Source: Sulfolobales archaeon HS-7 (GTDB lineage: Archaea; Thermoproteota; Thermoprotei_A; Sulfolobales; Sulfolobaceae). Taken from it: a stretch of DNA of 64,000 bases. The position numbers and the translations under genes were made by a program. The stretch lies in NCBI GenBank assembly GCA_019704295.1, contig AP024596.1, positions 704,001 to 768,000 on the forward strand, read 5' to 3'. Positions 6,056 to 61,199 of this stretch are shown here, piece after piece (positions within the stretch are counted from its first letter, which is position 1; the number at the start of each line of letters is the position of its first letter). A model generated the notes under the pieces. The model ran no database searches. It had not been told where the DNA came from and saw only the letters and a list, made by a program, of their open reading frames with translations.

Positions 6056-6577
6056 TTAGCACGATTGCGGGATAGTGTATTGTAATATATCCCTTACAAT
6101 CCATTTCGTAAGCTGATTAATCTCTAGTAATACTGTCCCTACGAAGGGTTGGCCATACAGCACAAGGGAGTTCTCACTCCCGAATATTACAAGGGGAATT
6201 ACGAGCATGTCCTCCTCGCCATCAACATAGATTGGGCCTTTGTAACCGCTTGTTAATAACTCCCTTAATTTCTCTAATGCCGAGATCCTTAGGACTCCTG
6301 GTTCATTCCTTATTTCAACCCCCCTTATATTCTCCACCACAGGTATGTTACGTCTCGTCTTCCTATCAGCAATAGATAGAGTAGGAGAAAACCCTTTCCT
6401 CATTAGAATTGATAAAACGTAATCCCCTACTACATATACTTTATCGAAGTTTTTGGCATGTTGTATTATCTTATCTGGACTTTTAATCACTCTTCCGTAA
6501 GGCCTTGATAACCTTAGCCTAATTTTTTCATCGAATGTTAAACAAATGTCTACTTCACGGTTATCGCATATCTCCAA
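6056..6577 (-). CDS. GTP-dependent dephospho-CoA kinase (DUF359)
   Basis: VVGD, D.KTRR, VDGEED and YGQP motifs; usual position after spt4. Confidence 0.85.
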   Translation of the reverse strand: MEICDNREVDICLTFDEKIRLRLSRPYGRVIKSPDKIIQHAKNFDKVYVVGDYVLSILMRKGFSPTLSIADRKTRRNIPVVENIRGVEIRNEPGVLRISALEKLRELLTSGYKGPIYVDGEEDMLVIPLVIFGSENSLVLYGQPFVGTVLLEINQLTKWIVRDILQYTIPQSC

Positions 6578-6747
6578 GGTCTCTCAACGCCTGCTACCTT
6601 TCCAGCCTCAGAGTCTATTGACATTACTATTAACATGCCGCTCCACTCGTCTGAGAAAGAGGATGAACCGCATATTGGACAGTTCCCCTGTTCCCTTGGA
6701 ACTAATGCCCTGCAATTTCTGCATGCCTTAAAGAAACTAGCTTTTAT
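6550..6747 (-). CDS. spt4: transcription elongation factor Spt4 (RpoE''), putative ATA start
   Basis: Manual translation (I)KASFFKACRNCRALVPREQGNCPICGSSSFSDEWSGMLIVMSIDSEAGKVAGVERPWRYAITVK; absent from the ORF track. Confidence 0.92.
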   Translation of the reverse strand: MKASFFKACRNCRALVPREQGNCPICGSSSFSDEWSGMLIVMSIDSEAGKVAGVERPWRYAITVK

Positions 6748-7291
6748 TTTGACTCACCTCCTCTTTTAACCACTCCAGCTTCCCGAGGTATGGTTGACGC
6801 ATGGTTAGACCTATTCTCATCATTTTGCCAGATGTATAAGCTCCTATCGAATTTACTCTAGCTCTTACGAAGTCACCCTTCTGTATTACCTTCTTACTCT
6901 TCTCGCCAACTAGCATGCCTCGAATATTATCGTATCGCATTTGATCGTCCATAACCTGTGAAATGTGTACGAAACCGTCTATAGGTCCAATATTCACAAA
7001 AAGTCCAGTGTTAGTAACTTGAACAACTATTCCCTCTACTAATTCCTGTAATACAGGAGTATATACCAGCAAATTGAACTCTGCTTCGTGATATGTTGCC
7101 CCGTCTCCCATTAAAATCAATCCCTCCTCGTTTACGTTGACATCGTAAACCGATAGGATTAGTCCTATATCTTTTATTACTTTCTCCTGATATTCCTCTC
7201 TCAAAACATTCAAAGCTACTTCTTCAAGCGGTTTACCGAAAAACTCCGGGGGAATTCTTACGACTCCTTTAGCCTTTATTATTTTATACAC
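6737..7291 (-). CDS. rpoE1: RNA polymerase subunit Rpo7 (E')
   Basis: VRIPP, GDGATYH, S1 domain GPIDGFVHISQ, LTMRQPYLGK. Confidence 0.96.
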   Translation of the reverse strand: MYKIIKAKGVVRIPPEFFGKPLEEVALNVLREEYQEKVIKDIGLILSVYDVNVNEEGLILMGDGATYHEAEFNLLVYTPVLQELVEGIVVQVTNTGLFVNIGPIDGFVHISQVMDDQMRYDNIRGMLVGEKSKKVIQKGDFVRARVNSIGAYTSGKMMRIGLTMRQPYLGKLEWLKEEVSQNKS

Positions 7292-7296
7292 ATTCC

Positions 7297-7731
7297 CTAG
7301 ATATCAAATGCCCCCTTAATAATTTTACCTTTACGACCTAATGTAATAACCTTTACCCCTGACAGTTTTGCTTCTTTGATAAGGGTTTTATCATTAGTGA
7401 AGAGTACCATTTTCCTCGCTATGGCCGTTTCTAATAAAGCTCTATCAACTTCGCCGTTCACATTATCATCTATAATCTCCCATATTCCTAATTTTTTTTG
7501 TAAGTAATTTTCAGCAATTCTAGCTTTGGCACCTAATTTTCCAGATCTAGTCTCTTTAGATTTCAATTCGTTAATGACTAAACGATGTATATAAAATTTT
7601 GGAGAATATTCTAGATAATCTGCTACTAATTGAAATACATCTATTCCATCGTATACGTACATTAGTATGTTAGTGTCTACAAGGATGGCTAAGCGCTCTA
7701 TTGTAATGTTCCCCACGCTATCATACGCCAT
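7297..7731 (-). CDS. PIN-domain protein (Fcf1/Utp24-like)
   Basis: LVDTNIL, ELK, VD and TND motifs; conserved position between aIF2 gamma and rpoE1. Confidence 0.85.
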
Positions 7732-8930
7732 CTGCCAGTAATTTGCTTGCTGATTACAATTCTCATTCCTTTATCCCATATTACTGCAGGTTTTTTCAAG
7801 ACGATGGATATAGTGTCACCCTTAGCATGAGAAACCGTACCGTAAATAGTATCCGTACCTACATTTATCATTAAACTGTCATTCACCCTGAACTTGTCTA
7901 CCTTTATGTCTGTGGTCACCCTTTCCAGCATATTGTATATCACAGTGATCTTATCAGTAACCTCAAGATTAACGTTGGCCCCTGTAACAACGCTTCCCCT
8001 TAGTACGTCAGCCTTGGTTAAGGAGGGATCCAGAGCCGTACCTATGGCAACCAACCCACCAGGTCTTGCCTTCTTCACCTCGACATCTCCAAATCTTAGG
8101 GTTCTAATTTCGGTATATATAGGGGAATATTCCGTTCTATTGCCCTTTTCTATTCTATTCCCTGGTAAAATCTTTATCTCGTCACCGATCTTAAACTCTC
8201 CCTGCACTATACTTCCTCCTAATACTCCCCCTCCTAAGTTGTTTACGGTCGTTCCTGGCTTATTTATATCAAAGCTCCTGATAGTTAGCATAACAGGCGA
8301 TTTACTAAGATCCCTTTCAGGGGTAGGTATATGTTTTTCAATGTAATATATTAGAGCTTCAATGTTAATTTTGTGTAGAGCACTCACTGGTACAATTGGA
8401 GAACCCTCCGCCCACGTTCCCTTTAAAAATTCCTTTATCTGTAAGAAATTCTTTATAGCGTCCTCTCTAGTCACAACATCAATTTTATTTTGTACTATAA
8501 TTAACTTAGTAATACCTATAATTCCAAGCGCATTAAAGTGCTCTCGTGTTTGCGGTTGGGGAAAAGGTTCATTTGCGGCGACTACAAGTAACGCACCATC
8601 CATAAGGGCTGCGCCACTGAGCATAGTGGCCATAAGACTTTCATGTCCAGGTGCGTCAATAAAAGATACCTTCCTTATGAATTTAGGTTCCCCTTCTCCA
8701 CATTGGGAACAATTATCCTCCGATATATACGCTTCTATTTCATTACAACCTTCGCATACTCCTATACTAGCCTCAGCGTATCCCAGTTTTATTGTCATTC
8801 CCCTCTTGAGTTCCTCTGAATGTTTTGCAGTCCAGACACCAGTTATCGCTTGCACTAATGTAGTTTTGCCATGATCTACATGACCTACTACACCTATATT
8901 CACTTCAGGCTGCGTTCTAGAACCACGCAA
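7698..8930 (-). CDS. eif2g: translation initiation factor aIF2 gamma
   Basis: [35 protein letters not shown]. Confidence 0.97.
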
Positions 8931-8934
8931 AAAC

Positions 8935-9579
8935 TTATCCCCTTACAATTACTGTATTGATCTGAACTATGTCTGGAGTAATCAAGTTTCCCCTTACTAG
9001 TTTTCGCCTTCGCTCACCAGGCTTAGCTGGATAATATCCAGGGGGTCCAGAAAGTAATATTTTTTTCTTTACACCGCCAAGTACATCAGAACGCATTGGG
9101 AATCCACTATTATCAGATCCGCCTGTTATCCTTAGTTTAAGTTCTGGTAATCCTATAATCGTCCCATCAAATTGTTCTCCTATCTTCATATTAACTAGTG
9201 AGGAAGCCCTACTTTGATCCATGTTTATTTGAAACGATTTCGCCCTATAAACTTCTCCATCAAATTCCTCCTTGCCAAACTTTTCAGCGATTTCTTTATT
9301 AATATATATTACATTATCGGGGGTTTTATTATCAATAACTGCCTTGAAATGGACTTTGATCTTCTCTTTCTTATCTCCTTCTTTTTCCGTCTGAATAGTT
9401 ATGAACTGAGGAGAACCTATTTGATTGTGCGTTTTCTCGTTTATCTTAGCTATTGGTAAGGCTTTTCCCTCCTTTTCTCCCTGTAACACGTTAACCTCCT
9501 CTGTTGAGATTACTTTGCATTTAATTTTTTTGTCATTCTTGGTTTCAGGGTCTGAGATGACAATTTTAAAGTCTGCCAA
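8935..9579 (-). CDS. rps6e: 30S ribosomal protein S6e (Sulfolobales long form)
   Basis: [33 protein letters not shown]. Confidence 0.96.
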
Positions 9580-9645
9580 CTTTACTCCTCAGTTATCAAG
9601 AGTTTAACTAAAATATAAAACCGTCTCAGGCTTAAATATAGATAA

Positions 9646-10035
9646 ATGTTAGGAGTCTTACTTGTACTTCATGGTAGCAGAATTGAAAGTTGGCAGGAGA
9701 CTGCTCTAGGTTATGTAAATCTGTTAAGAAAACACTTCGATAACGTAGAGTACGGTTTCATTGAATTCAATACACCTACTCTTCGCGAGGCAGCCGAGAA
9801 ATTAGCAAGTAAAGGTGTTTCAGAAATAGTTGCAGTTCCTCTTCTCTTCGCGGCAGGTACTCATTTCAAACGGGATATACCAAGGCTTTTGAATCTAGAG
9901 GGTTCAGCTATAAGAGTAGGAGAAACGAGAATACCTGTGAGAGTCGCCGAACCCATAGGAGTCGATGAAAGAATCTCGCAAATACTTAAAGAGAGAGTAG
10001 AGGAGGCTTTAGCTGCTGGGATCACTTTAGAGTAG
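9646..10035 (+). CDS. cbiX: CbiX/SirB sirohydrochlorin chelatase (small form)
   Basis: HGSR and VPL..AAGTHFKRDIP. Confidence 0.85.
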   Translation: MLGVLLVLHGSRIESWQETALGYVNLLRKHFDNVEYGFIEFNTPTLREAAEKLASKGVSEIVAVPLLFAAGTHFKRDIPRLLNLEGSAIRVGETRIPVRVAEPIGVDERISQILKERVEEALAAGITLE

Positions 10036-10084
10036 AAAACTCTTCCTAAATGTTCTACTATGAAAAGTATCAACTAAGCAAAAC

Positions 10085-10456
10085 TCACCTTGAATAAGAC
10101 AGAAGAAGTTGGAACATATCAAATGTAAAATATTCTCTATATTCTCCAGGATTTTTACTAATACAAATTGAAGCGAATTCCAGTTCATTCGCAACCCCAT
10201 ATTTTTCCTGGATCATGGTTAACGGGAGGTTCATATTAAGGTAGTCCCTAACAAACTCCTTAGAACATTTGTTATACAAAAAACATAGTACAGATAAATT
10301 CACTGCTCTTCGTTTTTTCCCATCATAGACGATTAAAACTAGTTGATCCCTTAATTTGCACCCATCAAGGATTTCAGAAGATATGGGTCTGATTAGTATA
10401 TATGGGACGTCCCGTTTTATGAACATATCAAGTATATCGTGAAAAGTTGTCTGCAT
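10085..10456 (-). CDS. hypothetical protein
   Basis: 123-aa ORF fitting between neighbouring genes. Confidence 0.6.
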   Translation of the reverse strand: MQTTFHDILDMFIKRDVPYILIRPISSEILDGCKLRDQLVLIVYDGKKRRAVNLSVLCFLYNKCSKEFVRDYLNMNLPLTMIQEKYGVANELEFASICISKNPGEYREYFTFDMFQLLLSYSR

Positions 10457-10493
10457 TACCGTAAACTAATTTAATTTATCCACATAAAAGCAT

Positions 10494-11069
10494 ATGATGT
10501 ACCCACCAACATGGGAAAAAGATAAAGCTAGCGCTGTAGATAGATTAGAAGAGGATAGACGAATAGGTTATTTAGACCCAGACATATATGACGTCCTTAT
10601 CGAATTCATGAAAGTTGACTCTCTCTTCACAAAGAGTAGTTGCAGTGGAAGGATAACTATAATAGATGCGGAATTTCCTTGGAATAGAAAAGATTCTTAT
10701 GTTCTATTTAAGAATCATTTTCCCATAATTAAAAATGATATACAGGAAGTAGTCAAGCAGAAAGCTAAGGCGACATTATGGTTAGTTACTCAAGGGCCTA
10801 TTCTCCACGTATATGCTGCTAACGAACAGGTTGCATGGAATTTGCTTAAGATTGCAAGGAATGTTGGATTTAAACATAGCGGAATTCTATCTGTAAATTA
10901 TCACGGTGCAGTAGTTGAACTTAGAACGGGTATAAAAATAACTATACCTATTCTTGATAACGATATTAGGGATAAATACATTGAAATAGCAAACAACGCA
11001 CTGATACTAGGCAAGAATAAACTTCAAAAGCTTAAAGAAGTGGTGTCCCTTGTTTCCACTCGTGATTAG
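10494..11069 (+). CDS. taw3: tRNA wyosine methyltransferase Taw3/TYW3
   Basis: GYLDPDI, TKSSCSGRI, PILH, GFKHSG. Confidence 0.92.
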   Translation: MMYPPTWEKDKASAVDRLEEDRRIGYLDPDIYDVLIEFMKVDSLFTKSSCSGRITIIDAEFPWNRKDSYVLFKNHFPIIKNDIQEVVKQKAKATLWLVTQGPILHVYAANEQVAWNLLKIARNVGFKHSGILSVNYHGAVVELRTGIKITIPILDNDIRDKYIEIANNALILGKNKLQKLKEVVSLVSTRD

Positions 11070-11864
11070 ATAGTATTTTATAATGGATTTTGTAGTGAGC
11101 TATCTGCTCTAGCGAATTAGGAAATTTTGCTTACCGACTTCGCCAGCAGGCCTTGACAGATATGAAGACTACCGCTATATAGAACGTGATGTTCAAGACA
11201 TTAAAGCCGGGTCGTTGACCGGAGCGTAGGCTTACAATACCCTCGCTCATGTCCCTTGGGTACGTTTAGACCATTAATAACCATAATTAAAGGGTAGTCT
11301 GTAAACACATATTGTAGTATAATAGGGCTATCCATACCCATTCTCACGTTACAATGTCTAATGTATAATTATAAACTAAAAAGTTATAAAACATATCTAT
11401 CTAGAAATTAAATTCGCTTAATTGTTAGAATAGTAATATAAAATTAGTTTATTAGGTGTAATTGTAAGTAATCATGCGGTTTTCGAAAATCAAGGGTAAT
11501 AAATGACCTTTTCTAAAGTAATGGGTTCAACGTTTGCTGAGGTTTCCATAAGGTAAATATTATAAGCTAGAAAGTCGGCAAAGGTGATCAATCGTTTACT
11601 CATTAAGTATTATCCCCAAATTGGACTCTTTGCTACTTGTTTTCCTATAAAATTTAGCTCTTAAACCACCGCTTGTTATATATTGGACACTATTTCGTGT
11701 TTTTAAGTTAGATTAATCCTATATTATTATAGACTAGTTAAACCAATAATATCTTTCCAGCATGAGATTTTTGGTGAAATGCGCTGTGAAATATATTAAT
11801 GTCTCCTAAAACTTCAGGAAAGTACAGGACCTTAGCCTTAGGGCCTCTCAGCGATACTTTCTCT

Positions 11865-12545
11865 TTATATATCTCCATTTATTCTCAAGTAAATTTTTCG
11901 TAGAAAGCGAATAATAGTTCTAGCGTCTTCTTCATCCCCAATTCCCCGCAATATAGTTCTCTTGAGAGAATAGTAAATCCTCTCATCTTGTGGATTTTTC
12001 TTAATAGTGTCCACCACCTCTCTAATATACTTATCAAGAAGCCTTAAAGCCTCGTCACTTATTTTAGCAGAGTTTTGTATAGCATTCCTGTTAATTTCGT
12101 ACAGCACTATTCCAACAGCGTGTGATAAGTTGAGAACAGGATACTCAGTGTTTGTAGGTATATGAAGCAATAAGTCACATTTAGATATTTCTTCCCTGGT
12201 TAATCCTACGCTTTCTCTACCGAATATAAGACCTACTCTCTTGTTCAGTATAAGTTTCGTTATCTCCCAAGGTTTTACGGATTTCCTTAGAAAATCACCA
12301 GGTATATCAGCTATACTAGAAGTTGCAATTTTAAGATCTAAATCGGTAATCGCTTCATCTAACGTTTGCACAACCCTACTTTCATTTAATACGTCTATTC
12401 CCCGCACTGCGAATTCCCTACCTTTGGTTACATCGCAAACAGGATTTACAATATAGAGTTCTTTCACCCCGAAGTTTTTACACAGTCTTGCTACAAATCC
12501 CACGTTATACTCGCCCTCAGGCTGAACAAGTATTACTCTAATCAC
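11865..12545 (-). CDS. trmJ: tRNA (C32 2'-O)-methyltransferase, TrmJ-type SPOUT
   Basis: VQPEGEYNVG, FGRESVGL, YPVLNLSHAV; GTG 12545 preferred start. Confidence 0.9.
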   Translation of the reverse strand: MIRVILVQPEGEYNVGFVARLCKNFGVKELYIVNPVCDVTKGREFAVRGIDVLNESRVVQTLDEAITDLDLKIATSSIADIPGDFLRKSVKPWEITKLILNKRVGLIFGRESVGLTREEISKCDLLLHIPTNTEYPVLNLSHAVGIVLYEINRNAIQNSAKISDEALRLLDKYIREVVDTIKKNPQDERIYYSLKRTILRGIGDEEDARTIIRFLRKIYLRINGDI

Positions 12546-13167
12546 TGCGAATACACTTAATAGCAAATATCGTTTCGAAATCAAAATTTTTCTCTATTTG
12601 CTTTTCAACTCTAATTTTGTTCCTACGTAATTCTGCGTATATTTTTTCCACATTTGCTAAAGAAGAATATACGAAATAATAGTAATTGGTACGGTATGAT
12701 AGGGCTTTAACGATTTCTTTTACCCCGTCAGGCCCCCCAGACCAGCTATATGATAACCATGAGTCGTATTCTTCTACAGGCAAATATGGAGGATTGAATA
12801 CTATTTTCTCAAAGTAATCTGCCCTAACTGCATACACAGTATCCGCGTTTATTATTTCTACATTTACATTATTGATCCTTGCTGAGCACTGTGTTGTTTC
12901 AGCGGCCATGGGATTTACATCAATCGCTACAACGCTAGCTCCAAGTTTGGCGAGATACACACTTATAATGCCAGTACCGCTTCCTATCTCCAAAATTCTC
13001 TCCCCCTTCTTAACATCAAGGATTTCCATTAAGGCCTGAGTGTCGTCAGATGGCTCGTATACATTATCATCGATGCAAATTTCTATATTATGGAATCTAG
13101 TAAGAGAGAAACGTCTGTTGGTGCGAATTGGTTCACTTTCATTGTAGAAACCGAATTTCGTCCGCAT
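12538..13167 (-). CDS. HemK2/PrmC-like methyltransferase
   Basis: VYEPSDDT, EIGSGTG, FNPPY; true start uncertain. Confidence 0.9.
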   Translation of the reverse strand: MRTKFGFYNESEPIRTNRRFSLTRFHNIEICIDDNVYEPSDDTQALMEILDVKKGERILEIGSGTGIISVYLAKLGASVVAIDVNPMAAETTQCSARINNVNVEIINADTVYAVRADYFEKIVFNPPYLPVEEYDSWLSYSWSGGPDGVKEIVKALSYRTNYYYFVYSSLANVEKIYAELRRNKIRVEKQIEKNFDFETIFAIKCIRSD

Positions 13168-13733
13168 AAAAGAGAGGCCCTCTTTAACGATTTATTTCTA
13201 TATTTTGAGATACACCCTATTAAATTATCCACTTGCTTATCATATTTTCTTGTTCTCTCTAACAATACTAATTCGCTATAAACTTTAGGTTCAGGCCTGA
13301 ATGATGAAGGAGGAATTTTCTTAATGGAACTAATTTTAAAGAAATAGTTACTGAGAAAAGAAATATACGTAGGATATTCCTGTAACTTTACTATAAAATC
13401 ACTTTGAATAATAAGTAATAATGAGTATATATCATTTATCTTAATAATTTCTGAAAAAAAATCCGATGTTATGTGATAAGGCAATGAAGATATTACACTG
13501 CCTCTGATAAAAGGGATATGCCTGGCGTCGCTAACACTAACGTTAAATTTTCCTCTTAATGGTTTAACTAATTCCTCGTCGATTTCAATAGTTAGATCAG
13601 GATTTATAACCTCAGTAATAGCCCCCTTACCAGTTCCTACTTCAATTACAGGTTTTCTAAGGGTCATCGCGATATCGCGAATTAAATACACTATTTTTTT
13701 ATCAACGAGGAAGTTTTGAGAAAGTCTTGCCAT
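13083..13733 (-). CDS. ksgA: 16S rRNA adenine dimethyltransferase
   Basis: SQNFL, EVGTGKG, SSLPY, F.P.PKV.S. Confidence 0.92.
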   Translation of the reverse strand: MARLSQNFLVDKKIVYLIRDIAMTLRKPVIEVGTGKGAITEVINPDLTIEIDEELVKPLRGKFNVSVSDARHIPFIRGSVISSLPYHITSDFFSEIIKINDIYSLLLIIQSDFIVKLQEYPTYISFLSNYFFKISSIKKIPPSSFRPEPKVYSELVLLERTRKYDKQVDNLIGCISKYRNKSLKRASLLCGRNSVSTMKVNQFAPTDVSLLLDSII

Positions 13734-13744
13734 TTATGGTTCCT

Positions 13745-14422
13745 TTATTTTTCATGTCTACTTTTTAGCTTCTGGAAATAGTTTATGAATGTGGTTTTTT
13801 CTCTCACTGGTTTAACGAATAGGAAATACCTCTCATCACTAAGACCTTGAGGCGAAGCAGCTTTTATTTCATATATTATTCTTTCAACTATTATGTTTTT
13901 GATGTCTTTCAATTTGGTTCTTTCCTCAATTTCCTTCAAACTCGTAAATTTACCCCTTTTCCTTTCATCTAATATAGTTTTTAATGATTTCTTTCCGATT
14001 GATGGTAATAATTCTAGGGAATGTAGTTTTAGCGTAAGGGATTCTGCCTGATTAAAAAACTCTACAAAGACATGTTCATTTTCATCCACCACTTTATTTA
14101 GAACTCTGACAAGCGAGTCCTTTGCGAGACTAGTTAGTTCATCATAAAATATTTGATCGACTCTGATAATTGAATTAGAGATAGGATACTCAGAGAGGGA
14201 GATCTTTTCTTCAGTTTGTATATTATCTAAAGGATGGATAAGTATTATTTCAAAAAGTCCGAAATAGTTCTCCCCTAATGCTTGAATTGTAGGTCTATTC
14301 TTCTCAGTCATTAGACCTTCTGGCATATAGTCAAGAACATAGAATGAGCTCTCGTCTATTTTTGTATCCCTTTTATCCCTATCAAACCTGCCATGAGCAT
14401 CTCTTCTCTGCAACGACCTCAC
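13745..14422 (-). CDS. DUF655 putative RNA-binding protein
   Basis: YVLDY, QALGE, LHSLELLP.IGKK; rpl21e-rpoF-DUF655-ksgA gene order. Confidence 0.88.
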   Translation of the reverse strand: MRSLQRRDAHGRFDRDKRDTKIDESSFYVLDYMPEGLMTEKNRPTIQALGENYFGLFEIILIHPLDNIQTEEKISLSEYPISNSIIRVDQIFYDELTSLAKDSLVRVLNKVVDENEHVFVEFFNQAESLTLKLHSLELLPSIGKKSLKTILDERKRGKFTSLKEIEERTKLKDIKNIIVERIIYEIKAASPQGLSDERYFLFVKPVREKTTFINYFQKLKSRHEK

Positions 14423-14457
14423 TTAAGTAAAATATTATAAAAGATAAAATAATAATC

Positions 14458-15526: not shown

Positions 15527-15605
<79 letters not shown>

Positions 15606-15805
15606 TTTAGCATTACTAAAATAGGTTAGTCCTTTTTACGGTTTTTGACTGTCTTAGAATTAGTTTAGGATTTAAAGATGCTTTATATTCTTTGAATAAT
15701 TTAGTTATTAATAATAAATCGCTAATATCTGTTCCTCTTAACATAATAACTCACTGATATTTTTAATAAGACTGTTTTCGTTAATAATCTTAGGGATTCA
15801 CCTTA

Positions 15806-16312
15806 ATCAAGATATGGATAAAGGAGTATGGTGAAGACGATCCAAAGAAATGTACGGGAAAGAAAATGATAAGATTAAATTATGCAAATCCTACCAGATC
15901 CTTCAAAGGAATAATATTAAATCCTTTTTCGAGGAAAATATTATCACTTAATGACTCTGATATTGTATCGAAACAGGGCATAACGATTATAGACTCCTCA
16001 TGGAATAAATCCGACATAACTTTTTTTAAGAAATTTATGAGAAATTCTAGAAGGTTACCCTTTCTTTTAGCAGCAAACCCTGTAAATTACGGAAAAGGAT
16101 TTAAGTTGAGCTCGTTAGAAGCCGCTGTTGCATCGTCTTATATATTAGGTGATACAGAGTTAGCAATAAAACTCGCTAATACAATAAAATGGGGTCATAC
16201 TTTCATAGAACTCAATAGAGAACTCCTCGATTGTTACTATAAGAAGACTGAAAGTGAAATAGAGAAATGCGAGAGAGACTTTCTAAATGAGAAATTTGAC
16301 CTTGGGACATAA
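15806..16312 (+). CDS. tsr3: 16S rRNA aminocarboxypropyltransferase Tsr3, putative ATC start
   Basis: In-frame DDPKKCTGKK lies upstream of the track ATG (15866); DSSW, RRLPFLLAANPVNYG, KLSSLEA, KWGHTF. Confidence 0.92.
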   Translation: MKIWIKEYGEDDPKKCTGKKMIRLNYANPTRSFKGIILNPFSRKILSLNDSDIVSKQGITIIDSSWNKSDITFFKKFMRNSRRLPFLLAANPVNYGKGFKLSSLEAAVASSYILGDTELAIKLANTIKWGHTFIELNRELLDCYYKKTESEIEKCERDFLNEKFDLGT

Positions 16313-21737: not shown

Positions 21738-21778
21738 AGTTAGAGGGAGACGCTTCCAACATGAAAAGGTGAAAGTAA

Positions 21779-22279
21779 GTGAGAATATACGATAGGGTCT
21801 ATATAATAGAGGGAGAGAGTTTTGGGGGAGGTACATATAATTCGTATCTATTCAATGAAGGCTATTGGTTTCTTGTCAATGGAGGCCTGATAACAAGTAC
21901 AAATCTCATGATCAATAATATCTTAGAAATTACTAAAGGACATCCATTAAGGTATATTATAATAACCTCTTGTATCAGAGAACTAGCGGAAAACGTTAAG
22001 GAATTATATATGGTATTTAACCCTGATATTATCGCTGGATATCCAGATTCGGTAAGGCTAAGGAGGGGTGAGTGTGGAAACTCTCCAGTAGAAATAGCAA
22101 TAGAAGTTAGGAACGAGATACGAATAGGGAAGATACGAATAGTAAGAAGTAAATCTCCTACCTCAGGATCAATAATAATTGAAAGTGAAGGCGGGATTTT
22201 CTCAGGTTTAACCAAAGTATCACCGCTTTACCAAAAGAGTTATTTGTTCTCGTCCACAGAATATATACGATATGGATAA
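21779..22279 (+). CDS. degenerate metallo-beta-lactamase-fold protein
   Basis: NSYL, LVNGG, YIIIT and PTSGS pattern without the metal-binding histidines. Confidence 0.6.
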   Translation: MRIYDRVYIIEGESFGGGTYNSYLFNEGYWFLVNGGLITSTNLMINNILEITKGHPLRYIIITSCIRELAENVKELYMVFNPDIIAGYPDSVRLRRGECGNSPVEIAIEVRNEIRIGKIRIVRSKSPTSGSIIIESEGGIFSGLTKVSPLYQKSYLFSSTEYIRYG

Positions 22280-26333: not shown

Positions 26334-26408
26334 TGGGCCCGCTGGGATTTGAACCCAGGGCCTTCGCCGTGTGAGGGCGACGTCCTTACCAGGCTAGACG
26401 ACGGGCCC
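26334..26408 (-). tRNA. tRNA-Val(CAC)
   Basis: GGGCCCG...TCGCC-CTCACAC-GGCGA...TTCAAAT...CGGGCCC-A. Confidence 0.96.
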
Positions 26409-39433: not shown

Positions 39434-40033
39434 TTGTTCACTCCCCGGGGAAGAGATATTAAAAGATTAAGGGAAAAGCTAGGTATTTCACAAACAGAGC
39501 TTGCAAAACGTGTAGGTATTTCCCAATCTTTCATAGCTAAAATAGAAAATGAAAAAATAGATCCTAGATTATCAACTATAAATAGAATCCTGGAAGAACT
39601 TCTAAATAATCTTTCGTTCTCGGAAACTGTGGAAAAAGTTATGAAAAGTCCAGTTATCTCCGCAACGGATAACGAATCCTTACCTCATGTATTTGAACTA
39701 ATGGAAAAAAACAACATATCTCAGTTACCGGTTATAGACAGTAATGGAATAATAAAAGGTATGATATACGACTATGTGATACTAAGAAAGGTGATATCAA
39801 AGGATCCTTTATCCCTAAAGGCAAAGGACGTTATGATTCAGCCTCCCCCATTGCTTAGAAGGACAACCCCTATAGAAGCGGCTATGAAAACATTAACCAA
39901 AAACCAGGTAGTCGTAGTTATAGATGATAAAATGAGACCAATAGGGATAATTACTAGGAGCGATATAATTAAGTATAAAATGTATACTACAAATAGTATA
40001 TTGTGGGCCGCGGAGGAACCCAACGGGATTTAA
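39434..40033 (+). CDS. XRE-HTH + CBS-pair regulator
   Basis: ISQTELA..GISQSFIAKIE, ISQLPV, GIITRSD. Confidence 0.9.
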   Translation: MFTPRGRDIKRLREKLGISQTELAKRVGISQSFIAKIENEKIDPRLSTINRILEELLNNLSFSETVEKVMKSPVISATDNESLPHVFELMEKNNISQLPVIDSNGIIKGMIYDYVILRKVISKDPLSLKAKDVMIQPPPLLRRTTPIEAAMKTLTKNQVVVVIDDKMRPIGIITRSDIIKYKMYTTNSILWAAEEPNGI

Positions 40034-40308
40034 CCCTGAGGAAATACCAGCCTCCCGCAGCAAGGGAGTCCTAACTAGGACATATGAAGAACATATGGCA
40101 ACTACAAAGAAAATTCCTCATAACCTCCGATGAGAATGATACGGTAGTTAAGGGAGCGATTCCTTAACGAAGTGGAGAGGAGGTTAGTAGAGTTGAAAAG
40201 TAGACCTCCCTGGAGCAAGGGGAAGATCTGTGAAAGGCTGTCGAGATCTTCCGTTTCCGCTTAGTCAAATGGTTCCTACGACAAAAGCTGGATTATGCCG
40301 CGGCCCAC
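40003..40308 (+). ncRNA. rnpB: RNase P RNA
   Basis: P1 GTGGGCCGCGG/CCGCGGCCCAC; GAGGAAATACCAGC (CR-I), GTTGAAA, GGAGCAAG, CTTAG..ATG and ACAAAAGCTGGATTA (CR-V). Confidence 0.93.
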
Positions 40309-48283: not shown

Positions 48284-48359
<76 letters not shown>

Positions 48360-52246: not shown

Positions 52247-52330
52247 GCCGTCGTAGCTCAGCCCGGGAGAGCACCCGGCTGAAGGAGGCCGGAAACCGGG
52301 GTGTCCGGGGTTCAAATCCCCGCGACGGCA
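52247..52330 (+). tRNA. tRNA-Phe(GAA) with 10-nt intron (52285-52294)
   Basis: GCCGTCG/CGACGGC-A; CCCGG-CTGAAG[GAGGCCGGAA]A-CCGGG. Confidence 0.93.
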
Positions 52331-52470
52331 TTATATTTAGTATAAACTCGATTAGTTGAACTCACTTTCAATCGGATTATACTATACTATATTAACCATA
52401 TACCCTTATGTTTCTCATTCGACTCCTACGCCTTTTACAAGACTAACTATCTTGGGTATATGGAGAGCAA

Positions 52471-52675: not shown

Positions 52676-52968
52676 ATACCTCTATTAACGTTGATTACGG
52701 AAGATGCTGGAAAGGTACTGAGTACTTTACTACTGGGAAACTGTTATCAACTGTACTAATGGTTTGCTTCTTAGAGAAGCTCTTCCTTAAATTTTACGTG
52801 ATTTCTATTAAAAGTTATTATAATTAGCTTATTTCGATCAAAAATTCTCAATTACCTTACGTTAAGTATTATTAAATCTCTTGAAGCCGAAGAAAGCGCT
52901 GTTAGAGTTTTTATAAACTTGTCGTATAATGTTTTTTTCCATTACTCATATAGAGAGAAAATTATCCA

Positions 52969-54186
52969 CTAATCTATCACCTTGACATCAAGTCCTTCCG
53001 ACTTTAATTTCGACATGAATGAAAATAGTGCCTCTTGAAATATTAGTTCAAAGGTTACATATACATTAGTAAAACCTGGACTTACCTCAGCACTTATTCT
53101 GTCATGCTGTACCTCTATTACATTGCCCTTAACATCCGCTACGTAACCAAGAATTCTATTTAAATATCCAGGTTTATCTGGAACTACTACTTTAACTCTA
53201 ACAATTTGCTTATGCTTGTGCCTTACATGCGCTATTACATTTGAAAGAAGAGATAAATCTATATTTCCTCCACTAATTAACGATATAACTTTTTTACCTT
53301 TCACGTCAACTCTGCCAGAGATCAGCGGAGCAACAGATGCTGCCCCTGCACCCTCAGCTAATGTTTTAGCTCTTTCCAACAATAACGTTATTGCCTCTGA
53401 TATTTCCTCATCATCAACCGTTACCACGTCATCTACAAGATCTTTAATTACCTCAAAAGTGATCTCGGAAGGCGTTTTAACTAATATACCGTCAGCAATA
53501 GAAAAAGATGGTTGTACTTCAGTCAGTTTTCCCGTTTTCTTTGACATTGCAAGAGAAGGTGAAGCCTTTGACTGTACTCCTATAATTTTTACAGATGGTA
53601 AGAGATTTCTCAATCCAATGGAAATCCCGGAAATAAGCCCTCCTCCCCCTATTGGGACTAAGACTACATCAGGTCTCAGTTCAGCTATTTCAAAGCTAAT
53701 CGTTCCTTGTCCTAAAACTACGTCAATATCATCATAAGGGTGTACTAAAGTATAACCGTATGCAGACATAAGTTCCTCTGCTTTTTTCATACTTTCATGA
53801 ATGTAATTACCATATAGAACCACCTCAGCTCCGTACTCTCTCGTTGCAAGGTATTTGGATATAGGAGCGTTTTCTGGCATAACAATAACAGACTTTATCT
53901 TCAATTTATTAGCAGCATAAGCTACACCCTGAGCATGGTTACCTGCCGAAACCGCAATAACACCCTTATTCTTTTGAGGTAATAAGGTAAGCATCTTGTT
54001 AAACGCTCCTCTAACCTTAAATGAACCAGTCTTCTGTAAATTCTCCAACTTTAGGTATACTTCCCCTTGACAAATTCGAGATAAGGTATTAGAGTAGTCC
54101 GTAGGCGTAACATGAATAAAGTCGATGATTCTATCCCTACTCTTTTTAAGATCCTCAAATAATTCACTGTAACTACGATTAAGCAT
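52969..54186 (-). CDS. ilvA: threonine ammonia-lyase with ACT domain
   Basis: [35 protein letters not shown]. Confidence 0.93.
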
Positions 54187-54679
54187 TTTCTAGCCTCTTA
54201 ACTCTATTAACAATTGGCTCTTTAAGCTTCTTATAAGTGTCTTCTAAAGTCTCTGGCATAACCTTTGTATTACTAGTAAGAGCTATGAAGTTTAGATCTC
54301 CAATCCATCGAGGAATAACGTGAATATGAATGTGTTGCTCTACACCTGCACCAGAGGCCCTTCCTATGTTAATACCTATATTTAAACCTTCAGGTTTATA
54401 GACTTCCCTTAGAGTATCAACTGAAATTTTAAGGAGATTCATCATCTCGTCGATTTCCTCATGTTCTAACAATTCAATGCTAGGTACATGACGATAAGGA
54501 ACTATCATAAGATGACCAGTATTATAGGGATATAAGTTTAATATTATGTATGATTTTACTCCCCGGTATATTATATAGACATCCTGATCATCCTTTTGAA
54601 CTACGTTACATAATATACATCCTTCGCCTTTGTTCCCGACAATATACTTCATCCTCCATGGAGACCATAAAATATCCAT
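54179..54679 (-). CDS. HIT-family hydrolase
   Basis: [24 protein letters not shown]. Confidence 0.92.
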
Positions 54680-54724
54680 AAGAATAGGTTAAGTCGTTCT
54701 GAGTTAATATTAGTAATTGGAGGG

Positions 54725-54960
54725 ACCCCTTGGTTTCCACTGGAACTTAATTGATAAGATATAAAGCAGATTAAGTCAGGTTATACAAACTAAAGGAGTG
54801 AAAACATTCTCTACTTTCCAAATGAAAGAGAGGGGTATCTGGGAAAACGTTTATAGTTCAGAAGAGTTGAATATTGATTAAGATAAGTCAGTTTAATAAT
54901 TGTATGAAAAACGATATTCAAATTGTTGTTAACTGGTTTCTCCAGTGGAAATTAAGGGGT
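54725..54960. other. replication origin (oriC1-type) with three ORB elements
   Basis: GTTCCAGTGGAAACCAAGGGGT (54725-54746, -), TTCCAAATGAAAGAGAGGGGT (54816-54836, +) and CTCCAGTGGAAATTAAGGGGT (54940-54960, +) with AT-rich spacers. Confidence 0.88.
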
Positions 54961-55071
54961 AATTTACTCCCCGGTTAAACGCGGAGAAATATTATAAAAG
55001 TAAAATATTAGCTAGTTATAGTAGAATATCAATAAAATTTTTATAAAAAAGTGCAAAAAGGCGTTATAATA

Positions 55072-55155
55072 CGCCGGGGACGGGATTCGAACCCGTGCGG
55101 GGAAACCCCCACCGGCTCTCCAGGCCGGCCCCTTAGTCCGCTCGGGCACCCCGGC
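55072..55155 (-). tRNA. tRNA-Ser(GGA)
   Basis: GCCGGGG/CCCCGGC-G, anticodon loop CTGGAGA, long variable arm. Confidence 0.96.
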
Positions 55156-55160
55156 ACTAG

Positions 55161-55472
55161 TTATTGTATTAATTCTATCTCTATATACACGTTTTCAGGG
55201 ACTCTAAGTCTCATTAGTTGTTTCATAACACGTTCATCTGCTGCTATATCGATCAGCCTTTTATGGACACTCATTCTCCATTTCTCCCATTTCTTTCTAC
55301 CTTCTCCATGTGGAAGTTTCATAACGGGCACTGTCATGTTTTTAGTTGGAATAGCTATTGGTCCTCTCATATATATTCCTGATTTCTCCGCAATATTTCT
55401 TATTTGTGTTACTACGTTTTGAAGATCCTCTACATTAGTACTCCATAGCCTTATTCTTGCTCTAGAGGGCAT
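55161..55472 (-). CDS. rps10: 30S ribosomal protein S10
   Basis: [21 protein letters not shown]. Confidence 0.97.
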
Positions 55473-55496
55473 ATATTAAGGCACCAATTTAGTATA

Positions 55497-56804
55497 TTAC
55501 TTAATTTCTATTTTGGCGGGCTTTACATTGGTTACCGTTCCTACGCCAACAGTCTTAGACATATCTCTTATTGCGAACCTCCCCAGTTTTGGAAACTCTG
55601 ATACTTTCTCCACAACTACAGGCTTTAATGGTTTAAACGTAACCATCGCGAGATCTCCCCTCTTAAGTAATTTCGGATTTTCCTCTATAACTTTTCCAGT
55701 GTTATCCATTCTGTTCTTAATTTGTACTATCTTACATGAAACACTTGCTTCATGAACGTGGAGATAGGGGGTGTACCCGACTGGTATTGCTGTTGGATGC
55801 CATACAATAAATAATGTTGCATCAAACTCATCTGCAACCGTTGGTGGGTTGTCAGGATGTCCAATCACGTCACCTCTCTTGACATCATTCTTTGTTAATC
55901 CCCTTAAGTTTACACCTACATTATCCCCAGGTTCGGCCTTATCAACTCTCTCATGGTGAGTTTCGATCGTACGTACCTCTGTTGCTTTTCCTGACGGTAA
56001 GATGACTACCTTATCTCCGGTCTTTAAAGCACCAGTCTCAACTCTACCTGTGACAACAGTGCCAACTCCTGTAACAGATATCACTTCTGTTATTGGCATT
56101 CTTAACGGTTTATCAATAGGCTTTGGCGGAATTTCTAAAGTATCGAGAAGTTCCTCTAGTGTAGGACCGTTATACCAGGGCATTTTATCCGATTTTACGT
56201 AAAGATTATCACCAGTAAGTGCAGACACTGGGACAAATCTAACCTTACTCATGTTCATAACTACTTCTTTCTCTAAGTACCTCTTTACTGTCTCCATTAC
56301 CTCATTATATCTTTTTTGATCGTATGGTGGTTCTGTAGCATCGATTTTGTTTATAGCTACAATTAACTGGCTTACACCCATTACCTTAGCTAGCAACGCA
56401 TGTTCACGCGTCTGCCCTTCAGATGACATACCAGCTTCAAACTCACCCTTTCTAGCAGATACAACTAAAATAGCCGCATCAGCTTGACTGGTACCAGTGA
56501 TCATGTTTTTAACGAAATCCCTATGACCAGGGGCGTCAATAATGGTGAAGAAGTACTTTTTAGTTTCAAACTTCATGAAACTTAAGTTAATCGTGATTCC
56601 TCTTTCTCTCTCCTCTTTCATTCTATCAAGCAGAAAGGCAACTTTGTCCGAGTCTTTTCCAAGTTTTTTAGCCGCCTCCTCAGCCTCTTTAAGTGTTTTT
56701 TCATCTATGAATCCTCTATTAAGCAGTAAATTCCCAACTAATGTACTTTTACCGTGGTCTATGTGGCCTATTACTATTAGGTTTAAGTGTGGTTTTTGTG
56801 GCAT
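55497..56804 (-). CDS. tuf: elongation factor EF-1 alpha
   Basis: GHIDHGKST, ERERGITI, DAPGHRDFVKNMITG, LGRFAIRD. Confidence 0.98.
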   Translation of the reverse strand: MPQKPHLNLIVIGHIDHGKSTLVGNLLLNRGFIDEKTLKEAEEAAKKLGKDSDKVAFLLDRMKEERERGITINLSFMKFETKKYFFTIIDAPGHRDFVKNMITGTSQADAAILVVSARKGEFEAGMSSEGQTREHALLAKVMGVSQLIVAINKIDATEPPYDQKRYNEVMETVKRYLEKEVVMNMSKVRFVPVSALTGDNLYVKSDKMPWYNGPTLEELLDTLEIPPKPIDKPLRMPITEVISVTGVGTVVTGRVETGALKTGDKVVILPSGKATEVRTIETHHERVDKAEPGDNVGVNLRGLTKNDVKRGDVIGHPDNPPTVADEFDATLFIVWHPTAIPVGYTPYLHVHEASVSCKIVQIKNRMDNTGKVIEENPKLLKRGDLAMVTFKPLKPVVVEKVSEFPKLGRFAIRDMSKTVGVGTVTNVKPAKIEIK

Positions 56805-57092
56805 TGGAATTACCTCCTAATTTGGAACATCATGTATAACATTAAAAATCTTAGCATACTACAGACCAGCGCGTCCTATACTTCCTAGTTCTTAAATATG
56901 AGGTAAGATTTCACTCACTAGTTTCATCAAAAGTTTCAAGCATGGAATTTCAGTAAATCTGTAAGTTATTACCCTTTCTCCTGTTAGACTTATGGAATCA
57001 TATTAAGGTCGATTTCTCCTTCTTTCACTGAACCCTGAAAAAAGTCGGTTATGTTAAAGGTTATTAACGAAGTGATAAATAACTAATATATA

Positions 57093-57539
57093 ATGGATGA
57101 AGATGAATTAAAAGTTGTAAGAATAGAAGCTTTTTTTACTCCTACACAGGCTACTCCTGTTATTGTATGTTATCTTGAAGATGATAGGCAGTTTGTATTA
57201 TACCATATATTACCAGAAATAATCATTGCTATAAATAAATTATTGGGAGTGGGTGATTATTCAGAACATTTTGGTCATGGAAGAGAAACACTATATGATG
57301 TTTTATCATCTATTAACGAGTTAAGGGACACCTTATCCGAGAAAATATCTAGAGTAGTGATAGATCAATTATATCCCGACCTCGGAGTTTTTAGTGCAAC
57401 CTTAGAGTTGAGGTTTGATGGGGTGATAATTGAGAAAAAGATGGTTCCAAGTCATGCTATCTATCTAGCTCTACTTGCAGATAAGCCAATTTATGTAAGG
57501 AAAAATCTTATCGATAGTCAGCAATCGGAAAATACGTGA
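57093..57539 (+). CDS. bifunctional nuclease-family (DUF151) protein
   Basis: RETLYD, RVVID, PSHAI.LAL...PIYV. Confidence 0.82.
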   Translation: MDEDELKVVRIEAFFTPTQATPVIVCYLEDDRQFVLYHILPEIIIAINKLLGVGDYSEHFGHGRETLYDVLSSINELRDTLSEKISRVVIDQLYPDLGVFSATLELRFDGVIIEKKMVPSHAIYLALLADKPIYVRKNLIDSQQSENT

Positions 57540-57703
57540 TAGGATATAATGATACTTAACCTCTTTCTCTACAGGGGGTTTTCCTTCATACTTTAAAATA
57601 TATCAGATAAACTCATCTAATAGATAGACGTAATATTAGCAGTAGGTCAGTTTTAATAGGCTATTTTAGTAGATAGAGGTATAACAATGTAAAAGGTGTC
57701 GAA

Positions 57704-58285
57704 ATGGAAAGCGAGCAGGATTATATTGAAATGAAACTGTTTGGAAAATGGGATTTCAAAGTAAATATTAGGGATCCCAGTCTTAAGAAATACATATCAA
57801 TTGCTCCCTCAATTTCTATTCATAGTAGTGGCAGGTACCAAAGAAGAAGGTTTGGTAAGTCCAGAATGTTCATAATTGAAAGATTAATGAATGATCTATT
57901 AAGACCTGGGAGAAATAAGGGAAAGAAAATATTAGCATATAACATCATTAGGATGGCGTTCGAAATAGTAGCTGCTAGAACCCATGAAAATCCTCTACAA
58001 GTGCTTATAAGGGCAATTGAAAACGCTGCCCCTAGGGAAGAGACTACTAGGATAATGTACGGAGGAATAGTGTATTATGTAGCAGTTGATGTTTCACCAC
58101 AACGAAGAGTCGACTTAGCATTAAGGAATTTATGTTTAGGGGCTAGGCAAGCATCTTTTAACAAACCAATTCCAATCGAAGAGGCGTTAGCAGAGGAAAT
58201 AATAGCCGCAGCTAATAATGATGAAAAAAGCTTTGCAATCAAAAGGAAGGAAGAGATAGAAAGAATTGCGTTAAGTTCGAGATAA
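57704..58285 (+). CDS. rps7: 30S ribosomal protein S7
   Basis: [39 protein letters not shown]. Confidence 0.97.
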
Positions 58286-58646
58286 CAGTTGTTTTTCCCT
58301 TACATATTAACTGTTCTACGATGAGTCGGATTCCCTATATCATTTCACCAAAAATTTTTACGGCAGTAAGATATTTATAGTTTTTCTATAAAAATGTAAG
58401 AATAACTCAACCTAAGAAGCAAGATATTCTCTCAGGATTTTAGGTGGAACGAAGTTAAAAAAACTCTAATAGCGGTTTATAAGCAACTCTATTCTCTCTG
58501 ACCTTTATTTCAACCGCTATAGTAAGTGTTAAGAAATCCCTCACTAAGCCTTAATTGTCCTCGCCTACTTAATAATAAATAAGGTGTTACAATAGGTTAG
58601 AACTCGTTTATTCACCCTCCAGCGTTCTAGAAATTACTTCATTTAT

Positions 58647-59953
58647 CTTCATAGCGGTTTAAAAGGGGCGGAAGAACCTTGAGGGCGGATACCCCACCCT
58701 TGTAGTAAAGGATAAATAGTTGTGATTCACGATTCTCCTAATGCTCTATGTGGGGTTTAGATTTAGGGCTTACGTGAAGCGACATTGAGGGCATTAAGGG
58801 CCAGGTTAAAGTTGACGTACGAAACAACACTTTGCGATAAGCAGATTTTTATTTCTATTCGAGGAGTTAACAGTTTTAACCCAAACCGAGTTGAGGAAAC
58901 TCGCCCTAAACCTGAGGAAGCAGAACGAAGAGTATAGAATACCGCACTCTCAAGTTGCTCAGAATATTTCGGATCGCTTTTACTAGGCTAGACGGAGGTT
59001 CTTTGACGAAATAGTGCATTTTCTTAGGAAGAAGCGTAAGTGGTTTTCCCTGGTCTACCCGCAGAGCTGTTGGAAAGTCCTGAGCGTAAGGAAGGTAAGG
59101 AAGAAGAGTAGGGAGGCAGGGAAGGGGCAACTCAAGGAGTTGGTTAAGTTAAGTTTTTCCACTTAGACGTCTTCAAGTTTTTATAAACGGGGACGTCCCC
59201 CTGGACAAGGTCAAGATAGTTATCGTAAAGTTGACGCCTTCGGAGAGAGTCTACATGTCCTTCATGTTCGAGAGATAGAAGTTCCTCAAGCTACCTCAGG
59301 TCAACAAGACCGTTGTGCTGGACATAGGTGTCAAGAACCTCATCATGACGTCAGATGGGGGAGTACTTCTCCAATCTCAGCCCTTACAGGATGGCCTTGT
59401 GGAAGGTGAGGCGCTTGCATAAGATCCTGTCCTGGAAGGAGTTCCTCTCTAAGAACTAGTTCGATACAAAAGTGAAGTTGTCCGAGGTCTACGAGTACCT
59501 TAAGAACCTCAGGAGAGACCTTCACATAAAACTTGGTAAATACTTAGCAAAGAACTACGACGTTCTCATCATGGAGGACGCAAACGTCAAGAAGCTTGTG
59601 GGCAAGCCCCTCCGAAAAACCAGTACACATAACGTAACCTTCCACTAGATGAAGTCCTCCTTGAAATACTAGATGCAAAAGCACGGTAAACGATCACTCT
59701 CGCGAATCCTGTATACACGTCCAAAACATGTGTCAAACGAGGTAACGTGGAGGAAGACCTAACCCATCTTGATCTAACGTTCTCCTGTCCCTAATCTGGG
59801 CGGGTCACTGACCATGATTCCAACGCCTCTCTGAACATTTTGAGTAATTCCTGCAACCCTTAGGACCTGTGAAGCTACATCCCCCTCCGGTTCTTAGGTA
59901 CTAGTCAGGTGGAACCGTGAATCTGGAAGCCCCTTCTAGTGTAGAGTGTTCAC
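58647..59953 (+). pseudogene. tnpB: IS605/IS1341-group element with decayed tnpB
   Basis: Left end after TTTAT; GFRFRAY, LDIGVK, MED.NV, YTSKTC and D.NASLNI remnants with stops; right end ending GTTCAC. Confidence 0.88.
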
Positions 59954-60025
59954 CATCGTAACACACCGAACTTTTGATTAAAACCTTGGAAGCTATGAAT
60001 CTGGAAGCTTACTTCCTAAATGGTA

Positions 60026-60469
60026 TTATCTCACTGGTTTCTGTTTTTTCCCCTTATAGAGGGCATCTAATGAAACTCCATTGACCATTATTACCTTATA
60101 TCTTACTCCTGGGAGGTCTCCCATCGATTTTCCAAGAGTACCTCCTATTCCTGCGATGATCACCTCATCATGCTCATCTATAAAGTTCACTCCTCCATCT
60201 CCAGGAACAAAAGCAGTTACCACTCTTCCATCTTTTACTAATTGAACTCTAACGCACTTCCTAACTGCCGAATTTGGTTGTCTAGACTCTATTCCTACTT
60301 TTTCAAGTACTATGCCACGTGTCATTGGAGCCTTTCCTAAAGGATCAAATTTCTCCTTTAAACGTAATACCCGTATCTTATACGCTCTTAAACTCCATTT
60401 AAACTTCTTTCTCTTCAGTTTCAACTTTCTTGATGCAAATAAACCCTTCGGTGATTTACTTCCTGTCAT
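60026..60469 (-). CDS. rps12: 30S ribosomal protein S12
   Basis: [14 protein letters not shown] and GDLPGVRY. Confidence 0.98.
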
Positions 60470-60473
60470 TTTC

Positions 60474-60899
60474 TCACTCTATTATGACTGAGTCAATGTC
60501 TTTATATCTCTTCAAAATAAGTTTAGCTCTCTGAACGTTTCTTCCGTTCTTACCAATTGCAATACCTTTATCATTAAAGTCGACCCTGATATGCATTACT
60601 TTCTTTGAGTTATTCTGGACAATCTTTATCGCTCTTACTCTCGCAGGGGCCATTATGTTCTCAACTAGTTTCTCCATATCATCGTTATACTCGACTATCT
60701 CTATGTCCTTTCCAATAACGTTCTTAAGTTTTCTAACATTAGTCCCCCCCTTGCCTATCGCTAACCCAGTCTGTCCTGGATTAACGAGGAATATTATCCT
60801 ATCCTCGGTAATAATGCAATCTCTTGCAGTTACCCTTGTAACGTCTTGGAAAAGCGACATATACTTTAGTTCTTCTGGCGTTAATTTTATATCAGGCAT
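60474..60899 (-). CDS. nusA: transcription factor NusA
   Basis: Two KH domains, AIGKGG and AIGKNG. Confidence 0.95.
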
Positions 60900-60905
60900 A
60901 AAAGC

Positions 60906-61199
60906 TTATTCACCTCTAATTTCTAATCCCTCCGCCTCAATAACTCCTATACATGATATCATATACGGTTTACCTAATAGAGCCCCTAACTCATAACCCG
61001 AGCCGTTATATATCTGAACGGGGATATTGGAAGCCGTACATAATCCTAATATTTCATTTTTCAACTCATCATTTATATTATTAGATAAAAACACATATTT
61101 ACATTTACCTTTTTTTATTGCCTTTATTGTTGTCTTAGATCCGATCACGTATTTACCGGTTCTAACAACCTGCTTTATATCAATATTAGGTTTTGAAAT
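60906..61199 (-). CDS. rpl30e: 50S ribosomal protein L30e, putative ATT start
   Basis: TGKYVIG and GSGYELG..GKPY; the conserved N-terminus extends 17 codons upstream of the track GTG. Confidence 0.93.
   Translation of the reverse strand: MSKPNIDIKQVVRTGKYVIGSKTTIKAIKKGKCKYVFLSNNINDELKNEILGLCTASNIPVQIYNGSGYELGALLGKPYMISCIGVIEAEGLEIRGE

Follow-up and report, generated by a model that had tools for sequence, protein, structure and literature searches.

Probable near-cognate start codons in spt4, tsr3 and rpl30e of Sulfolobales archaeon HS-7: a likely family-wide trait of Sulfolobaceae

How does a gene begin when no ATG, GTG or TTG lies between the stop codon that closes its frame upstream and the conserved N-terminus of its product? 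Three core genes, spt4, tsr3 and rpl30e, raise this question in a stretch of 64,000 nucleotides (hereafter the window; contig AP024596.1, positions 704,001 to 768,000) of the genome of Sulfolobales archaeon HS-7. An earlier note on this DNA had observed that each of them carries an in-frame stop a short distance upstream and an ATA, ATC or ATT (ATH) where the start is expected; the lack of a canonical start (ATG, GTG or TTG) before the conserved N-terminus was confirmed for all three by direct reading and by Pfam profiles. Our answer is that these genes are probably translated from AUA (spt4), AUC (tsr3) and AUU (rpl30e), the initiator Met-tRNA reading each near-cognate codon with one mismatch, and that this would be a property of the family Sulfolobaceae as a whole. 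The window is part of a closed genome of 2.15 Mb (G000; 39.6% G+C), the sole representative of its genus among the Sulfolobaceae genomes compared, with a marker completeness of 91% despite the closed contig.

All three genes are present in single copy with intact open reading frames (ORFs), and they were the only ones without a canonical start among the 60 window genes that have an orthologue in Sulfolobus acidocaldarius SUSAZ (G009), the genome (2,061,920 bp) taken whole for comparison. With the products numbered from the ATH codons, the Pfam profiles of Spt4, Tsr3 and L30e start at residues 2-7, so that the domains include the residues encoded ahead of the first canonical codon. The short open stretch of each gene holds no near-cognate codon other than its ATA (spt4), ATC (tsr3) or ATT (rpl30e). 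The start codons of orthologues given below for each gene refer to 40 relatives searched.

The spt4 coding sequence (6550..6747, minus strand) runs over 65 codons from ATA (6747-6745) to a TAG stop (6552-6550). The ATA stands 6 nt behind GAGGTGA (6754..6760, minus strand), a Shine-Dalgarno (SD) motif complementary to the 3' end of the 16S rRNA of G000 (GGATCACCTCA), and the TGA inside this motif (6756-6754) is the in-frame stop closing the spt4 frame upstream. After the SD the sequence reads GTC AAA, ATA and then AAA GCT AGT TTC TTT AAG GCA TGC, leading into the conserved FKACRNC, and the first in-frame canonical codon, an ATG, comes 37 codons past the ATA, behind all four zinc-binding cysteines. 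The Spt4 profile PF06093 aligns residues 7-65 with profile positions 2-77 at 43.5 bits, above the curated cut-off. Orthologues of spt4 start mostly at ATG, also at TTG, 1-5 codons around the position of the ATA. In four genomes near-cognate codons occur here as well: GGTGA-N6-ATT with no canonical codon in G022, GGTGA-N6-CTG in G029 and G001, and ATA ATA ACG behind GAGGGA in Metallosphaera cuprina (G012). The upstream gene, rpoE'/rpo7, overlaps the first spt4 codons, its TAG stop (6737..6739, minus strand) ending 5 nt after the ATA, a layout compatible with termination-reinitiation coupling. Antisense to spt4 lies a 61-codon shadow ORF with an ATG start (6546-6731, plus strand), which a gene caller refusing ATA could pick in place of spt4.

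The arrangement at rpl30e (60906..61199, minus strand; ATT at 61199-61197) is of the same kind. A GGTGA motif (61206..61210, minus strand) precedes the ATT by 6 nt, the intervening codons being AAT GAA, and the TGA of this motif is the stop of rpoA'', which is read in the same frame as rpl30e. The first canonical codon is a GTG at 61148, 17 codons later and past the RTGK motif; the only L30e of G000 in the public protein collection is an 80-amino-acid form starting at this GTG. The L30e profile PF01248 covers residues 7-92 at 60 bits, again above its curated cut-off. Nearly all orthologues start at ATG, GTG or TTG, 5-7 nt after GGTGA, and one genome (G039) shows GGTGA-N6-ATA.

For reference, a canonical start of the window, GTG at 21779 (plus strand), stands 6 nt after GGTGA at 21768-21772, so that the whole element (21768..21781) has the spacing of the two SD-led ATH sites; the equality claimed by the earlier note was found to be exact at these three sites. 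The 16S rRNA 3' end pairs with GGTGA, and 6 nt after GGTGA is also the modal spacing of canonical starts. For spt4 and rpl30e, initiation at the ATH codon is the best reading of the sequence.

The third gene, tsr3 (15806..16312, plus strand; ATC at 15806-15808), is a different case, for which initiation at ATH appears a reasonable reading. Its 5' region reads TAG (15791-15793), GGA TTC ACC TTA and then the ATC, and the first canonical codon is an ATG at 15866, past DDPKKCTGKK. Two profiles match above their curated cut-offs, PF04068 (Fer4_RLI; residues 2-30 to profile positions 2-32, 37 bits) and PF04034 (Ribo_biogen_C; 138.7 bits), and up to the point where the profile match begins the ATC is the sole near-cognate codon. 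In every orthologue an ATG, GTG or TTG either coincides with the ATC or precedes it by 1-4 codons. The view that ATH occupies the expected start thus stands as to position, as the ATC aligns with the orthologue start and the ATA of spt4 and the ATT of rpl30e lie 1-3 codons from theirs; the SD is absent at tsr3. This gene is the first of its unit, divergent from a tRNA gene at 15531-15605 and with no upstream cistron. It looks like a separate sub-case, a recent substitution of the start codon (ATG to ATC) that may still allow weak initiation.

An A/T-rich, promoter-like stretch precedes tsr3 at 15760..15789 (plus strand), consisting of TTTTTAATAA followed by GTTAATAATC. In several genera the tsr3 start is preceded, at a distance of 6-12 nt, by a motif like ATAAGAACTTTACGA (loci L002, L005, L008, L010, L011 and L014). 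The similar AATAAGACTGTTTTCG in G000 (window positions 15762-15779) lies 26 nt before the ATC, the leader seeming about 17 nt longer. This conserved motif may be a promoter or an operator.

How frequent such starts are was determined for the whole genome in comparison with SUSAZ. Stop-to-stop ORFs of the two genomes formed 1317 pairs of reciprocal best hits. A loose criterion, alignment over at least 5 residues upstream of the first canonical codon, was dropped, as the approximately 105 'cases' in both genomes were mostly chance extensions of alignments, split genes and spurious ORFs inside rRNA genes. Under a stricter criterion of at least 8 aligned, similar residues upstream, with the spurious rRNA-internal ORFs discounted, about 33 genes of G000 and about 40 of G009 show N-terminal conservation that begins before the first canonical codon. 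A near-cognate codon located 4-9 nt behind an SD-like motif (SD-led) was detected in 16 of the G000 genes (ATA 5, ACG 4, ATT 4, and one each of ATC, CTG and AAG) and in 25 of the G009 genes (ATA 8, ATT 6, ACG 5, ATC 2, AAG 2, AGG 1 and CTG 1). G000 is not exceptional, because the same test yields at least as many cases in G009.

A motif test was also made without homology. Among ORFs that span 80 codons or more and lack a canonical start close to the 5' end, the codon 6 nt after GGTGA was compared with the control positions +3 and +9. Near-cognate codons occupied 14 of 36 positions at +6 in G000 versus 10 of 71 control positions (Fisher p=0.006), and 18 of 34 versus 11 of 69 in G009 (p=0.0002), an enrichment of about 3-fold in both genomes; the background of the seven near-cognate codons in coding sequence is 15-16%. 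From these comparisons, near-cognate initiation is most likely an ordinary, family-wide trait of Sulfolobaceae that would affect at least 1-2% of conserved genes and include ACG and CUG.

Several claims of the earlier note have to be revised in this light. The count of N-termini without a canonical start, run against G009, bears out the existence of SD-led cases and not their restriction to this lineage. The starts are not AUH alone: ACG and CTG, which differ from ATG at the second and the first position, respectively, also serve. A translational control common to genes of transcription and of the ribosome was rejected as an explanation, because the genes concerned are of diverse function (sucD, FEN1, an ABC ATPase, dehydrogenases, aroA, fni, LeuRS, TBP and uL24). 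Nor do three cases in 64 kb make a significant cluster, because the genome-wide rate of about 2.5% predicts about 1.5 in the window.

Two cases conserved across the family are sucD and FEN1, picked out as G000/G009 pairs in which both genomes are without a canonical start; both genes lie outside the window (sucD, contig C1 of G000, 887679-888521, minus strand, ACG start; FEN1, contig C1, 1776233-1777276, minus strand, ATH start). In each of the 25 Sulfolobaceae genomes, sucD has an ACG at SD+6, in leaders of the form AGGTGA TGC NNT ACG or GTGAGGGA TGC NCT ACG with varying flanking codons, and ACG makes up only 9-21% of threonine codons. For FEN1, the 24 Sulfolobaceae genomes with a match all have ATA, ATC or ATT, and never ATG, at SD+6, followed by GGN GTA GAY, the M-G-V-D N-terminus of the family. 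Other families of the order have ATG or GTG in sucD and ATG or TTG in FEN1. Since both genes are conserved in this form throughout the family, near-cognate starts can persist for as long as Sulfolobaceae exist. ATH starts common to G000 and G009 were also detected in a gene for an SPOUT methyltransferase and in a gene without assigned function.

Public annotation treats the two genes differently. Many Sulfolobaceae FEN1 proteins in RefSeq begin with MGVDL, that is, at the ATA or ATC codon (the M. cuprina protein, for example, matches locus L262), and other FEN1 entries are cut short, to 302 and 331 amino acids in the older ones of S. acidocaldarius and 316 amino acids in G000. For sucD, RefSeq places the start at a nearby ATA, GTG or ATT, two codons after the ACG, rather than at the ACG. 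The codon of G000 at this position is GTA, which leaves the ACG as the only shared candidate for the sucD start. The missing canonical starts have also shaped experimental constructs. Two PDB entries were compared with the loci L119 and L146. The crystallised chain of S. solfataricus FEN1 in 2IZO (346 amino acids) starts 5 residues after the conserved M-G-V-D-L, and the chain of S. acidocaldarius TBP in 1MP9 is the whole open frame, YIIPDE..., for which the start is likely an ATT or ATA after GGTGA.

The earlier note had offered relaxed third-position start selection in this lineage as the explanation, and an altered aIF1, aIF1A or initiator tRNA could in principle let AUH start in G000 alone. 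Three cases in 64 kb, in a genome isolated in its genus and with an incomplete marker set, might be taken to favour it, but the comparison with G009 largely refutes it, ACG and ATH starts are conserved family-wide, and other genera show ATT, ATA or CTG at SD+6 in spt4 or rpl30e. The two components of the machinery inspected gave no sign of abnormality either: the initiator tRNA is canonical in both G000 and G009 (A1:U72, GGG/CCC anticodon stem and CAU anticodon), so an unusual initiator tRNA was rejected, and the aIF1 gene, inspected in three genera (G000, G009 and G012), has an ordinary ATG start. We regard a lineage-restricted relaxation as very unlikely. Errors of base calling or assembly, by which ATG or GTG became ATA, ATC and ATT or an indel shifted a nearby ATG, are extremely unlikely. 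Such an indel might be suspected at rpl30e, where ATG AAA TTT... is found one base out of frame beside a short A run; this ATG, however, is 1 nt from GGTGA, too close for initiation, and at tsr3 the homologous frame reaches upstream of the out-of-frame ATG. As judged from the alignments, the three codons are changes specific to the G000 lineage, and the same kind of change arose independently in other assemblies, where the layout of a near-cognate codon at SD+6 recurs; sequencing error is therefore disfavoured. Broken ORFs are not in excess in G000, with 7 shortened ORFs versus 9 in G009 among 1137 pairs.

Loss of the starts, leaving N-terminally truncated products made from the next ATG or GTG, or genes in decay, is unlikely in general and most plausible for tsr3, which has no SD here and keeps a canonical start in all relatives. 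In other organisms tsr3 is dispensable. The ATC of tsr3 is thus the least secure of the three starts, and truncation or decay is possible there. Gene callers do yield just such truncated forms, as the 80-amino-acid L30e illustrates, but truncation would deprive Spt4 of all four zinc ligands, L30e of the RTGK strand and Tsr3 of the DDPKKCTG domain, and the three ORFs, intact and single-copy, are conserved upstream of the canonical codon. Recoding, either by a shift of frame after initiation at the neighbouring out-of-frame ATG (rpl30e and tsr3) or by read-through of TGA giving an RpoA''-L30e fusion, is highly unlikely. It has a parallel in Sulfolobaceae, where aRF1 carries ATG AGT CTT TGA for an early +1 shift in 21 of 25 genomes, and rpoA'' and rpl30e do share one frame with only the TGA between them. 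A search of the three sites for +1 frameshift signals of the prfB/aRF1 type, however, detected no re-pairing site at rpl30e and tsr3 and no out-of-frame start at spt4. No slippery site is present: the rpl30e ATG would need a -1 shift, for which AAA TTT cannot re-pair, TGG TGA at tsr3 would require Trp-tRNA to re-pair on GGU, and the TGA of spt4 is not the rpoE' stop. It is also implausible that an essential ribosomal protein would always have to be made fused to a subunit of the polymerase.

Initiation at the near-cognate codons themselves is left as the probable explanation, and several observations weigh against it. In the 5' region of tsr3, as read, the ATC is preceded by no GGTGA-type SD, just by an AGGG 10 nt before it, and initiation on leaderless or short-leader mRNAs is considered to rely strongly on AUG. 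Out-of-frame ATG codons adjoin two of the sites (61204-61202 at rpl30e and 15814-15816 at tsr3). The association with upstream stops is modest: 18 of the 41 SD-led near-cognate starts (about 44%) lie within -30 to +15 nt of such a stop, versus 28% of canonical starts, a set comprising starts in general and not only SD-led ones. As G000 is alone in its genus, these particular codons of spt4, tsr3 and rpl30e are seen in a single genome. Finally, S. solfataricus aIF1 is reported to discriminate in vitro against a model mRNA with AUU (Hasenohrl 2009, as summarised in PMC4705826 and PMC6237735). Therefore, if the near-cognate codons serve as starts in vivo, the strength of the SD, coupling or limiting aIF1 must permit it.

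A scheme consistent with these data can be proposed for spt4 and rpl30e. Pairing of GGUGA with the 3' end of 16S rRNA would fix the 30S subunit, and this anchoring would bring the P site over the codon that follows 6 nt later. The upstream cistron ends within 11 nt, and ribosomes that terminate there may provide a further supply. A codon with one mismatch to the initiator Met-tRNA would then be enough for initiation at a rate below that of AUG, in keeping with the lower output expected from near-cognate starts (PMC4705826). In some genes, such a start would have been retained since Sulfolobaceae arose.

Two further genes with unusual 5' ends were noted. The aRF1 gene of G000 (contig C1, 1857519-1858610, minus strand) has no in-frame start; the 12-mer ATG AGT CTT TGA is located at 1858603-1858614, placed such that the coding frame follows in +1, and its CUU UGA is known as the site at which bacterial prfB shifts. 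A riboflavin-kinase/HTH-like gene (ORF opening at 1970418 in G000 and at 1103964 in G009, both plus strand) has GGAGGG-N7-TTG AAA AG in both genomes. The conserved frame is offset by +1 from the TTG, and no canonical codon occurs in that frame for 58-81 codons; ribosomes may slip early by +1 on A-AAA-A, or the start may be unusual in some other way. The RNA genes of the window are ordinary, including an archaeal RNase P RNA (40004-40307, plus strand; 141 bits) and five tRNA genes at 15531-15605 (minus), 26334-26408 (minus), 48284-48359 (minus), 52247-52330 (plus) and 55072-55155 (minus).

In bacteria, SD-led near-cognate starts are known from the AUU codons of E. coli infC and pcnB. The sites described here resemble them in that a codon with one mismatch follows a strong SD at the usual spacing and is presumably read as methionine. 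Unlike E. coli, Sulfolobaceae possess initiation factors of the eukaryotic type (aIF1, aIF1A and aIF2) and not IF3. Unlike infC, the gene of the fidelity factor aIF1 starts at ATG, and an infC-like autoregulatory loop through aIF1, which was considered, was rejected for this reason. To our knowledge, the frequency in Sulfolobaceae is far above that in E. coli. Termination-reinitiation coupling is known in both archaea and bacteria, and the starts of spt4 and rpl30e, like those of coupled cistrons, lie within 11 nt of the upstream stop; coupling here is putative, and upstream of tsr3 there is no cistron. Among the rare starts of NCBI translation table 11 are ATT, ATC, ATA and CTG but not ACG; Sulfolobaceae, in contrast, use ACG as well. 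The RefSeq start of FEN1 (MGVDL), at ATA or ATC 6 nt after GGTGA in many genera, is the same type of site as those of spt4 and rpl30e, but it reflects annotation practice and not an experiment or a published analysis, and the L30e of the window is instead kept as an 80-amino-acid stump. Our literature search for natural AUH or ACG starts in Sulfolobales found no paper in the library covered. The three genes of the window thus join a known class of near-cognate starts; of greater interest is the use of such starts across the family, ACG included, and its partial conservation.

Gene finders limited to ATG, GTG and TTG shorten or miss such proteins. Essential genes of model Sulfolobus species that invariably start at ACG or AUH offer a direct, testable handle on how SD pairing overrides eukaryote-type proofreading, because aIF1 is published to reject AUU in vitro. 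A further proposal, which we put forward tentatively as possible rather than probable, is that Sulfolobaceae hold near-cognate starts under selection as a fixed layer for setting expression or sensing fidelity, with ACG in sucD and AUH in FEN1 dating from the origin of the family and Spt4, L30e, uL24 and others switching in and out. If this is true, the translation of a defined set of genes would respond to the activity of aIF1 and aIF2 or to translation of the upstream cistron, in model archaea that are genetically tractable.

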